From Escherichia phage P1: DNA of 64,000 nucleotides. Position numbers and translations under genes: made by a program. Where the stretch lies: the sequence record AF234173.1, one strand, 5' to 3'. This document shows positions 51,575-52,908 of this stretch, piece by piece (position 1 is the first letter of the stretch; each line of letters starts with the position of its first letter). The notes beneath the pieces are model-generated. The model was given only the letters and a program-made list of their open reading frames with translations, was not told the origin of the DNA and made no database searches.

Positions 51575-51591
51575 ATTGCTCTAATTATAAC
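51575..51591 (+). promoter_or_regulatory. Operator-like site ATTGCTCTAATTATAAC directly after repL
   Basis: First 11 nt identical to the C1 operator core, 3' half divergent. Confidence 0.35.
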
Positions 51592-51739
51592 CATGCATAC
51601 TTTCAACACCTCTAGTTTGCCATGAGGCAAACTCATAGGTGTCCTGGTAAGAGGACACTGTTGCCAAAACTGGACGCCCCATTATTGCAATTAATAAACA
51701 ACTAACGGACAATTCTACCTAACAATAAGTGGAGTTAAC

Positions 51740-52444
51740 ATGTTGAACCGAAGAACATTTAATGTATTCTGCGATGAATCCTGTCACCTACTAAATGATC
51801 ATAATAAAGTCATGGTATTGGGTGCGCTTTGGTGTCCCGGCACTATCACAAAAAAAATTGCTAGAGACATCAAGGAATTAAAATTAAAACACAATCTAAA
51901 ACCTGATTTCGAAATCAAGTGGACTAAAGTATCTGCGTCCAAAGTTGAATTTTACTTAGATGTCGTAGATTACTTCTTCAGCAACCCTGCATTGCGCTTT
52001 AGAGGTGTTGTTGTTCCTGATAAAGAGCAACTGGACCATGCTCGATTCCATCAAGATCATAATACTTTCTATTATAAGATGTTTTTTTATGTCTTAAAAA
52101 ACATAATAGAAAGTAACAACACATACAATATCTACCTAGATATAAAAGATACTTTAGGTATTGAAAAAATTGAGAAATTAAGAGGGGTTCTTCACAATGA
52201 TCGCTATGATTACAATCATGAGTCGATAAACAGAATTCAACATATACGATCTCATGAAGTGCAGCAATTGCAGCTAACGGATCTTTTCATTGGCGCGTTA
52301 GGCTACGTTCATCGAGGAATGAATAGCAACGCGGGAAAAATCCAAGTCATAAACAGAATAAAATCACATACAAACAGGGAGTTACTAAAAAGTACTCTTC
52401 CAACAGAAAGTAAATTTAATATTTTCGTGTGGGAGGCTCGCTGA
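51740..52444 (+). CDS. rlfA: RlfA-like protein of unknown function; N-terminal F-C-D-E-S motif reminiscent of DUF3800-type proteins
   Basis: 234-aa AT-rich ORF; ATG with AAGTGGAG upstream; stop overlaps the rlfB start. Confidence 0.6.
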   Translation: MLNRRTFNVFCDESCHLLNDHNKVMVLGALWCPGTITKKIARDIKELKLKHNLKPDFEIKWTKVSASKVEFYLDVVDYFFSNPALRFRGVVVPDKEQLDHARFHQDHNTFYYKMFFYVLKNIIESNNTYNIYLDIKDTLGIEKIEKLRGVLHNDRYDYNHESINRIQHIRSHEVQQLQLTDLFIGALGYVHRGMNSNAGKIQVINRIKSHTNRELLKSTLPTESKFNIFVWEAR

Positions 52445-52908
52445 TGCTTCAAATGCCAGATTTATTGTACTTCAATGGAAGTTGGCAAGAGTATATAGAC
52501 GATGTATATGATGTTGTTAGAGAAGATATTTTAATATCTAATATAACGTTTAAGGGTCTCCCTGTTCGATTACGTTATTCACCGGAATATAATGGGAAAG
52601 AATTCGGATTTTGGCATTTAGTATCAGAGGGAAAAATAGAAGAAGAACGTATACCCGATCTTGAACGGTGCAAGCGAATTCGCTGGATCGCGCACATGAT
52701 AAGGAATTATAACCATTGCGATATATCATGTTGGTCTGAAAGACGAGGACCAACTGAAGAGTGGGTAATCTGGAATGAGTGTGAAAACTACGTTGTTGTG
52801 CTATCCGCACGTAGAGACTATTGGCTTCTCAAAACAGCCTATGTTGTAACCTATGACAGTAAAATCAGAACACTCAAACAAAGCAGAAAAAGAGCACTTG
52901 GGACATAA
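52444..52908 (+). CDS. rlfB: RlfB-like protein of unknown function
   Basis: 154-aa ORF from ATG 52444 (GGGAGG 7 nt upstream); TGATG overlap with rlfA; no recognisable motif. Confidence 0.55.
   Translation: MLQMPDLLYFNGSWQEYIDDVYDVVREDILISNITFKGLPVRLRYSPEYNGKEFGFWHLVSEGKIEEERIPDLERCKRIRWIAHMIRNYNHCDISCWSERRGPTEEWVIWNECENYVVVLSARRDYWLLKTAYVVTYDSKIRTLKQSRKRALGT

Follow-up and report, generated by a model that had tools for sequence, protein, structure and literature searches.

Although P1 is among the best-studied phages, two of its genes, rlfA and rlfB, have been listed under a mere placeholder since the annotation of 2004. GenBank remarks that these replication-linked genes are "possibly associated with lytic replication", and a literature search found no functional study of rlfA or rlfB, nor of the neighboring pmgF. 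What the pair does is addressed here in a 64,000-nucleotide (nt) stretch of Escherichia phage P1 DNA (sequence record AF234173.1; this whole stretch is termed the window), in which region 51572–53073 is 100% identical to phage P1 AF234172/NC_005856, with coordinates unchanged. A preliminary description, made from the letters of the sequence, had proposed an undescribed two-component system resembling abortive infection, exclusion or toxin–antitoxin (TA) systems. Comparison with other genomes indicates that rlfA and rlfB supply the proteins of a three-part cassette, horizontally mobile and located at P1 51730–52976, the third part of which is a structured small RNA. The cassette is read, with about even confidence, as a TA-like abortive-infection or exclusion module regulated by its RNA.

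The protein half has a compact layout. The rlfA open reading frame (ORF; 51740–52444, plus strand) encodes 234 amino acids (aa) and rlfB (52444–52908, plus strand) encodes 154 aa from its ATG, with an alternative GTG at 52429. The last base of the rlfA stop TGA (52442–52444) is also the first base of the rlfB ATG (52444–52446), and a ribosome-binding site, GGGAGG (52430–52435, plus strand, read from the sequence), lies inside the 3ʹ end of rlfA, 8 nt before the rlfB ATG. The ORF sizes, the overlap and the ribosome-binding site are as the preliminary description had them, and its view that the two genes form a coupled pair is supported. Among 80 genome loci fetched solely by RlfA peptide patterns, RlfB follows RlfA in 79, and the inferred rlfB start lies −8 to +3 nt from the rlfA stop in 56 of the 79 assessed; Shine–Dalgarno (SD)-like purine runs precede many of the homologous rlfB starts.

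The third part of the cassette, which starts close to the end coordinate given in the preliminary description and extends past it, was missed there. It is a structured RNA gene of approximately 70 nt, convergent with rlfB (52907–52976, minus strand; 5ʹ-ACUCAUCUACCAUGUGUAGAAAGAGCGAUCGAACCCGAUACAUAGCAAUAUGUGUCGGGUUCAGCUUUUU-3ʹ), defined by homology, a covariance model and folding, at a position where GenBank annotates no feature. Nucleotide homology between the P1 module and unrelated genomes spans 51730–52976 and, distant loci included, continues 68 nt past the rlfB stop codon. Aligned from six loci in three phyla, this tail shows two hairpins, compensatory changes and an invariant core, and the covariance model was built from these six sequences. 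Applied to the 80 RlfA-selected loci, which span many phyla, the model matched 78, or 78 of the 79 that were assessable, and in every matched locus the RNA is encoded directly 3ʹ of rlfB, on the other strand. The two loci with no match are a contig that ends at the rlfB stop codon and a Sulfurimonas locus, the only one with RlfA but no RlfB. No other copy of the RNA was found by the model anywhere in the window.

The structure of the RNA is well supported by an 81-row alignment. Paired cells make up 95.7%, versus 41–52% when partners are slid by 1–3 columns. Double-sided (compensatory) changes are present in 18 of the 22 pairs (318 cells), no shuffle matched the observed values, and RNAalifold independently gives an identical structure. 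The 72-nt P1 RNA folds with a free energy of −29.8 kcal/mol (z −6.5). Since G·U pairs number 180 versus 16 A·C mismatches, transcription is assigned to the strand antisense to rlfAB; this ratio of 180 to 16, together with the minus-strand promoter, also led to rejection of a plus-strand 3ʹ untranslated region element as an explanation. That promoter lies at 52983–53011 on the minus strand, where a consensus scan identified a −35 element TTGAAA (53011–53006), a 17-nt spacer and a −10 element TAGATT (52988–52983); the RNA is predicted to start near A52976. Upstream of the RNA, a position-specific TTGAC...TAnnnT is conserved (80 instances), and the Bacteroidota loci have a Bacteroidota-type TAnnTTTG there.

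The RNA consists of a 5ʹ hairpin domain and a terminator. The 5ʹ domain, CUC-A-UCUAC-[CAUGU]-GUAGA-AA-GAG in the alignments (52952–52975, minus strand), is the best-conserved part of the RNA and holds an SD-like (A/G)GGAG; its hairpin, CUCAUCUACCAUGUGUAGAAGGAG, is near-invariant across phyla. The inner stem covaries (UA, AU, CG, GC and GU at one pair), but there is almost no variation in the outer CUC/GAG or in the loop. The terminator is a 14-bp stem-loop (52915–52946, minus strand) identified by a minus-strand terminator scan and as an inverted repeat; it is followed by AGC-UUUUU (52914–52907), the U-tract of which (52911–52907) overlaps the rlfB stop codon. Compensatory changes are found in 13 of the 14 stem pairs, and both the stem and the U-tract are conserved. 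In nearly all loci, the RNA model match overlaps the 3ʹ end of rlfB, and the terminator is probably bidirectional and shared with rlfAB.

The RNA belongs to no family in Rfam 15. The P1 element matched none at E values up to 10, DUF3800 motifs included; seven homologous loci gave no RNA match at E up to 5, and 16 loci gave no gathering-level match at the RNA motif. With searches of P1 and 23 other loci empty at the motif, a known RNA family was rejected. A coding RNA was likewise rejected: a P1 minus-strand ORF (52801–52983, 60 aa) overlaps the element, but in homologues any frame is broken by insertions in the loops and by indels that are not multiples of three. An RNA acting as a trans-antisense regulator, as in type I TA systems, was also discarded. 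When the 5ʹ domain was paired by RNAduplex with the rlfAB mRNA in 79 loci, duplex energies equaled those of shuffled sequences (−20.5 versus −20.9 kcal/mol) and target positions were scattered, with none conserved; the RNA is complementary to the rlfAB transcript only at the terminator that they share. Because antisense complementarity does not exceed that of shuffles, protein binding is favored over antisense action. The near-invariance of the 5ʹ hairpin across phyla, which parallels the unusual conservation of RlfA, points to the hairpin as a protein-binding surface.

Several loci depart from the standard form of the RNA. Loci of Marinobacter, Pseudomonas, Kosakonia and some Bacteroidota have an extra, inserted hairpin of 15–30 nt where the 5ʹ hairpin otherwise has its 5-nt loop (alignment rows L025, L038, L060, L065, L066, L075, L079, L087, L089–L091 and L046); this variable site may lie outside the proposed protein-binding surface. 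Locus L039 has, besides the normal copy after rlfB, an extra RNA copy just upstream of the rlfA homologue (421–498, minus strand), which may be the remnant of a tandem or recombined module. In L034, from an anammox-bacterium metagenome-assembled genome (MAG), an Rfam DUF3800-V RNA (RF02964, 40.7 bits) lies at 5616–5711 on the minus strand, approximately 370 nt beyond the new RNA; there is no second DUF3800 gene nearby, and this may be one module carrying two different DUF3800-linked RNAs.

The proteins of the cassette are of the soluble type. For RlfA, the preliminary description had likened the sequence F-C-D-E-S at residues 10–14 to the signature of DUF3800 proteins, and a search of Pfam bears this out: RlfA matches DUF3800 (PF12686) at E 3.5e-14 (54.2 bits, cutoff 21), with residues 8–189 covering profile positions 1–148 of 149. 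The RefSeq name of RlfA is already DUF3800 protein. According to the literature, members of this family fold like RNase H and carry a D-E...QxxD signature (PMC7736814), and the fold of RlfA agrees in being RNase H2 (RNase HII)-like, with PIWI/Argonaute and Cas9 RuvC domains also among its structural neighbors. D12-E13 (in FCDESCH) and Q178-L-T-D181 are invariant among 32 RlfA homologues; D134 is invariant too, and the acidic D-E...D...QxxD set is intact. RlfA is proposed to be a putative nuclease with a complete set of catalytic acidic residues.

RlfB is more distant from known proteins. Sequence searches gave no Pfam or NCBIfam match, nothing significant in a PDB sequence-profile search and no sequence-profile match to the RelE, ParE, HigB, YoeB or colicin D families. 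A Pfam scan of 88 family members gave no consistent match, only a lone weak one to DUF4258 (E 0.042), and a sequence-derived function for RlfB was abandoned. In a profile search, 1,791 cluster representatives were found, all of them single-domain proteins of approximately 150–180 aa. H58 is the sole invariant residue, and R69, R75, R78, W57, W81, W97 and Y116 are conserved at 90% or more. The earlier statement that RlfB has no recognizable motif therefore holds for the sequence libraries, but its structural model weakly resembles RelE/colicin D RNases. From this model, RlfB is tentatively described as a small alpha/beta protein with a RelE/colicin D (BECR)-like fold, and it looks like a RelE/colicin-D-type RNase or an RNA-binding module. 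Public records label RlfB a "replication protein" (RefSeq, PHROG 16230), a label that no tool result backs, and the name "oxidoreductase" (NCBI), given to several enterobacterial homologues and in some plasmid records, is equally unsupported; both names look uninformative or inherited. In Methylomonas sp. 11b and one E. coli assembly, the RlfB homologue is split into two ORFs by a frameshift or stop (L005/L006 10699–11178; L004 10695–11179), with RlfA and the RNA intact.

The two proteins together are already catalogued. Against PADLOC profiles, RlfA matches PDLC04353 at 1e-95 and RlfB matches PDLC04355 at 1.3e-51 in addition to 11 further B profiles, all of the candidate system PDC-M04. Like PDC-M04, which is defined as an adjacent same-strand gene pair (PDC-M04A and PDC-M04B), rlfAB is such a pair, and P1 rlfAB is a member of this candidate. 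However, PDC-M04 is a bioinformatic candidate defined by its two proteins, and the convergent small RNA lies outside the definition. No text describing PDC-M04, its validation or an RNA component was found in a literature search. Calling the system undescribed, as the preliminary description did, thus went too far, in that both proteins match PDC-M04 and RlfA is already named a DUF3800 protein; nor is the system one of two components, given the conserved RNA.

While RlfA loci nearly always have the RNA, the RNA is frequently found on its own in phages. A search of IMG/VR with a DNA pattern of the 5ʹ hairpin matched at least 120 stretches, 80 of which were fetched as loci; all 80 match the RNA model, mostly at full length, and RlfAB adjoins the RNA in just four. 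Among the matches listed, the neighbors of orphan RNAs encode AntA/KilAC antirepressors, ORF6N, a Panacea-domain protein, an exonuclease, TnpB and DUF5675. Orphan and coupled copies were compared only for instances with at least 1,400 nt on the side where RlfAB would sit. By this measure, 56 of 59 RNAs in viral contigs among the matches listed are orphans and three are coupled, whereas a general metagenome sample taken with the same pattern has RlfA and RlfB at 30 of 50, decayed modules at five and orphans at 15. The orphan excess in viral contigs, counted on the viral side among the matches listed, is significant (Fisher p 2.5e-13). In the decayed metagenome modules, C-terminal remnants of RlfB are still attached to the RNA. 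An alternative protein partner was rejected, since metagenome loci with RlfB and no RlfA are decayed modules and the orphan neighbors are heterogeneous. Orphans also occur in cultured phages, namely Vibrio phage 1.084.O (L335 2492–2566), Streptococcus phage Javan423 (L336 2496–2580) and Mammaliicoccus phage phi116 (L337 2493–2586), in unannotated intergenic gaps that adjoin HNH endonuclease genes or, for the phi116 copy, lie approximately 660 nt from genes for tRNA-Asn and tRNA-Pro. Of 79 assessable RlfA loci, 78 have the RNA, but in phages most copies are orphans; therefore, RlfAB implies the RNA, and in phages the RNA does not imply RlfAB.

This distribution bears on the possibility that the element is a widespread phage regulatory or decoy RNA, interacting for example with the ribosome or an RNase, and that RlfAB only travels alongside it or uses its terminator. 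Approximately 95% of the viral-contig instances among the matches listed have no RlfAB nearby, and the variety of orphan neighbors, from antirepressors, Panacea, exonuclease and TnpB to HNH and tRNA genes, also speaks for an independent RNA. Seen from the protein side, however, the coupling holds at 78 of 79 assessable loci, and neither position nor orientation changes between phyla or outside phages. Moreover, the single RlfA locus without RlfB is also without the RNA, and decayed modules retain the RNA next to RlfB remnants. An independent RNA is accordingly given only a small chance.

The genomic surroundings of rlfAB are typical of defense or TA cargo. In Methylomonas, a Nitrospirota MAG and Algoriphagus, homologues lie between hsdS and hsdR of type I restriction–modification (R-M) operons, and the Algoriphagus locus additionally has a reverse transcriptase (RT) upstream and a prokaryotic Argonaute (pAgo) downstream. 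Other homologues immediately follow an integrase, in one case that of an E. coli mobilizable element, which also encodes a NACHT protein, and in another that of an Enterobacter lambdoid prophage, at the prophage edge. In P1 itself, the genes occupy a variable slot. Within PLSDB, repL is present in 516 plasmid records and rlfAB in 101, and approximately 80% of repL-positive P1-like plasmids are without rlfAB. In two of the latter (NZ_CP117715 and NZ_CP086223), P1 homology breaks off at 51585 and begins again only at 53412, and the space from repL to bplB is occupied by a small hypothetical ORF and the type I toxin gene hokD (5397–5979 in both L093 and L094) rather than rlfA-rlfB-RNA-pmgF. P1-like plasmids have been reported to carry other ORFs often in place of rlfA-rlfB-pmgF (PMC6906374). 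The earlier view that the position is one of accessory defense or addiction cargo finds support in the variable slot and in the homologues within R-M operons and beside integrases.

Base composition was compared as well. The earlier claim that the two genes are more AT-rich than their flanks stands, with a GC content of 0.352 for rlfA, 0.383 for rlfB and 0.369 for 51730–52976, compared with 0.469 for the whole window, 0.453 for repL and 0.48–0.50 for bplB/pmgG (repL, kilA, bplB and pmgG together span 0.45–0.50). However, the module falls at the 7th percentile of equal-sized windows, so that it is AT-rich but neither unique nor the most extreme island. A second island, more AT-rich still (GC 0.31–0.35), lies at window position 46600–48200, upstream of the icd/ant region. 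Collectively, these observations support rlfAB being AT-rich accessory cargo in a variable slot of P1.

The historical view of the genes as replication-linked has some basis in the locus. In this account, RlfA would be an RNase H that processes the transcript, or an R-loop, at oriL within repL and thereby primes lytic replication, with RlfB as a helper. The genes immediately follow repL/oriL and have a C1 operator in front of them; GenBank carries the remark on lytic replication; RlfA has an RNase H2-like fold; and during P1vir infection rlfA and rlfB are switched on together with the early lytic genes (bioRxiv 10.64898/2025.12.28.696737). However, in a CRISPR interference (CRISPRi) screen, rlfA and rlfB were both non-essential for P1, knock-down leaving plating intact (PMC10695390), and approximately 80% of plasmids with near-identical repL have no rlfAB. 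Furthermore, 79 of the 80 other loci have no repL partner, the module being found in R-M operons or beside integrases; annotation notes record that the repL sequence of P1-derived vectors ends at 51736, before rlfA; and the conserved RNA is left unexplained. Because the genes are non-essential, absent from most repL-bearing relatives and found in non-replicon contexts, a replication role is the least likely of the rival explanations and is considered very improbable.

Occupation of the same slot by hokD, a classical addiction toxin, in the two P1-like plasmids examined raises a different explanation, that the cassette serves plasmid addiction only. Post-segregational killing, by an RNA antitoxin and a protein toxin, would then stabilize P1 and other mobile elements with no anti-phage role. 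Residence on integrative elements and prophages beside integrases fits such a function, and a separately transcribed RNA with coupled proteins resembles TA logic. On the other hand, several phyla have the module inside chromosomal type I R-M operons, where replicon stabilization is not at issue, P1 already has phd/doc, and the enrichment of orphan RNAs in phage genomes is easier to explain as counter-defense. Addiction as the sole function is therefore regarded as unlikely, although TA and abortive-infection roles are not mutually exclusive.

For a TA-like abortive-infection or exclusion module, the following scheme is proposed. In an uninfected lysogen, constitutively produced RNA would bind the RlfA/RlfB complex via its invariant 5ʹ hairpin and silence nuclease activity. 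Upon infection or plasmid loss, the RNA would be titrated, cleaved or not replenished, and the freed nuclease or nucleases would degrade RNA (or RNA–DNA hybrids), stopping growth of the cell and the invader. Phages with stand-alone copies of the RNA would supply the inhibitor in trans as counter-defense. Toxicity, the identity of the effector, RNA–protein binding, the trigger and anti-phage activity are all inferred in this scheme. A more specific version, in which the cassette would represent a new class of RNA-antitoxin immunity with the hairpin RNA as a pseudo-substrate or clamp on an RNase H-like/RelE-like pair and phage orphans as in-trans counter-defense, is possible but rather doubtful.

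The cassette shares its proposed logic with type III TA systems. In ToxIN, a protein RNase is held in check by a small structured RNA, the system acts by abortive infection, and phages escape via pseudo-ToxI RNA mimics. By analogy with this and with AbiQ/antiQ and CptIN, the same logic is proposed for the P1 cassette. However, the cassette RNA is single, without tandem repeats and downstream-convergent, whereas type III antitoxins are tandem-repeat RNAs encoded upstream of the toxin gene, with a terminator between the two; there are two proteins rather than one; and the folds are RNase H2-like and, tentatively, RelE/colicin-D-like rather than ToxN/Kid-like. With both architecture and folds differing, membership in type III was rejected.

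Type I systems offer a parallel in gene arrangement. In par of pAD1 (fst/RNA II), a small RNA and a toxin operon are convergent and share a bidirectional terminator. The P1 cassette resembles par and hok-sok systems in its convergent small RNA with a shared terminator, and hokD lies in the same slot of two plasmids. Unlike type I toxins, though, RlfA and RlfB are not small membrane peptides, and the 5ʹ domain of the RNA is no more complementary to the rlfAB mRNA than expected by chance, making classical antisense control unlikely.

Structured RNAs have been found beside DUF3800 genes before. Weinberg et al. (2017) described the RNA motifs DUF3800-I to DUF3800-XI beside DUF3800 genes, with function unexplained (PMC5737381), of which at least DUF3800-I, -V and -IX are in Rfam (RF02969, RF02964 and RF02968, respectively). 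These motifs resemble the P1 RNA in being structured, in lying beside a DUF3800 gene on either strand and often in having a Rho-independent terminator (PMC5737381). The P1 RNA differs in that it matches no Rfam 15 family, and P1-type RNA is tied to the RlfA subfamily and RlfB and, in phages, also occurs without any DUF3800 gene.

DUF3800 proteins are also linked to retron type VII (PMC7736814), to Cas12a2/a3 loci (PMC10910872, PMC12669027) and, elsewhere in the literature, to some VI-F loci. Retron type VII (PMC7736814) and the Cas12a2/a3 TPR-DUF3800 loci (PMC10910872, PMC12669027) resemble the P1 cassette in that, within a defense context, an RNase H-like DUF3800 protein is paired with a non-coding nucleic acid of its own. 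However, the P1 cassette has no RT, msr/msd or CRISPR array, and RlfB has no counterpart in those systems. Additionally, retron-linked DUF3800 proteins lack the glutamine of QxxD (PMC7736814), whereas RlfA retains it. No RT ORF is present in the P1 cassette region 51586–53411, and the RT upstream of the one Algoriphagus locus is not a general feature.

These comparisons, together with the PIWI/Argonaute and Cas9 RuvC neighbors of RlfA, bring in another explanation, in which the RNA is a cofactor that guides or scaffolds RlfA (as an RNase H/PIWI-like nuclease) and RlfB is a downstream effector. The RNA might, for example, form a hybrid with invading single-stranded DNA or dock on the ribosome via its SD-like GGAG. 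Such a role is consistent with the occurrence of DUF3800 proteins in two kinds of system centered on RNA or hybrids, type VII retrons (beside the RT) and Cas12a2/a3, with the eleven other RNA motifs beside DUF3800 genes (PMC5737381) and with the nearly invariant single-stranded or loop sequence of the RNA. Yet the exposed sequence is near-invariant from Proteobacteria to Bacteroidota and Chloroflexi, so it is not a programmable guide, and the locus yielded no conserved target complementary to it. Moreover, orphan copies in phages would then arm, not disarm, the system. Both the general cofactor role and these particular examples of it are judged improbable.

Several lines of evidence together lead to the TA-like abortive-infection or exclusion reading. 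It is adopted because both proteins match PADLOC candidate PDC-M04; because homologues sit in R-M operons, beside integrases and near pAgo, RT and NACHT genes; and because 79 of the 80 RlfA loci have RlfB and 78 have the RNA. The RNA contributes its covariation, its G·U strand bias and its host-adapted promoter, and RlfA its RNase HII-like fold with invariant D12/E13, D134 and Q178xxD181. The reading is further favored because the genes are non-essential, because in two plasmids the cassette is swapped for hokD, a gene of an RNA-antitoxin TA system, and because orphan RNAs are enriched in viral contigs and present in cultured phages.

Other considerations weigh against it. The literature search found no paper on rlfAB function or PDC-M04. 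Because rlfA has a C1 operator upstream, RlfAB may be repressed in the lysogen, an unusual state for a prophage defense gene, unless the promoter PrlfA, downstream of the operator, is active. As a single-copy, downstream-convergent RNA, the regulator is unlike known type III antitoxins, and the phage orphans could mean that the RNA has a function independent of RlfAB. Finally, association with defense islands is also seen for plain TA modules.

Upstream of rlfA, P1 has elements that are not part of the shared module. The preliminary description had pointed to an operator-like core and two stable hairpins before the pair. The core is in fact the annotated C1 repressor operator Orlf (formerly Op55; 51575–51591, plus strand, annotated in AF234172), and the two hairpins, GTTTGCC..GGCAAAC and GTGTCCT..AGGACAC, can be read from the sequence at 51614–51660 (plus strand). 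The 174-nt leader that contains them (51572–51745) folds better than shuffled sequences (z −3.3). Both operator and hairpins are P1-specific and outside the conserved module; the leader is specific to P1/P7, and in homologous modules the hairpins are lacking and rlfA frequently overlaps its upstream gene. The hairpins are probably the end of the kilA-repL transcript or a leader structure. Missing from all non-P1 homologues, the operator and hairpins were rejected as parts of the system. PrlfA, a predicted sigma-70 promoter (51685–51713, plus strand), comes from the GenBank annotation (AF234172) and was not recovered by a simple consensus promoter scan; it lies downstream of the C1 operator. 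On the other side of the RNA gene, pmgF (53074–53370, minus strand, GC 0.39) is in the same P1-specific cassette as rlfAB and outside the widely shared module. The C1 operator, both upstream hairpins, the predicted PrlfA and pmgF are P1-lineage additions to the module. Between bplB and pmgF, a strong terminator-like hairpin, AAAGCTCC..GGAGCTTT, with a T-run lies at 53415–53434 on the minus strand.

Part of this was already known, namely that the pair is the catalogued candidate PDC-M04 and that DUF3800–RNA associations were noted in 2017. New are an RNA that neither Rfam nor the P1 annotation contains, the almost invariable coupling of this RNA to RlfA and RlfB and its orphan excess in phages, as well as, tentatively and from a structural model, the RNase-like fold of RlfB. 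For P1, an RNA gene is added to the map, and the label "replication-linked" is replaced by a concrete model that, owing to E. coli K-12 genetics, is testable with standard tools. The cassette also links three loose ends: PDC-M04, the association of DUF3800 genes with structured RNAs (open since 2017) and the DUF3800 effectors of retrons and Cas12 loci. Should the RNA turn out to inhibit the nuclease pair, this would be a new type of RNA-controlled defense or TA system present across at least 10 phyla, and many phages would carry the matching RNA as an anti-defense decoy.

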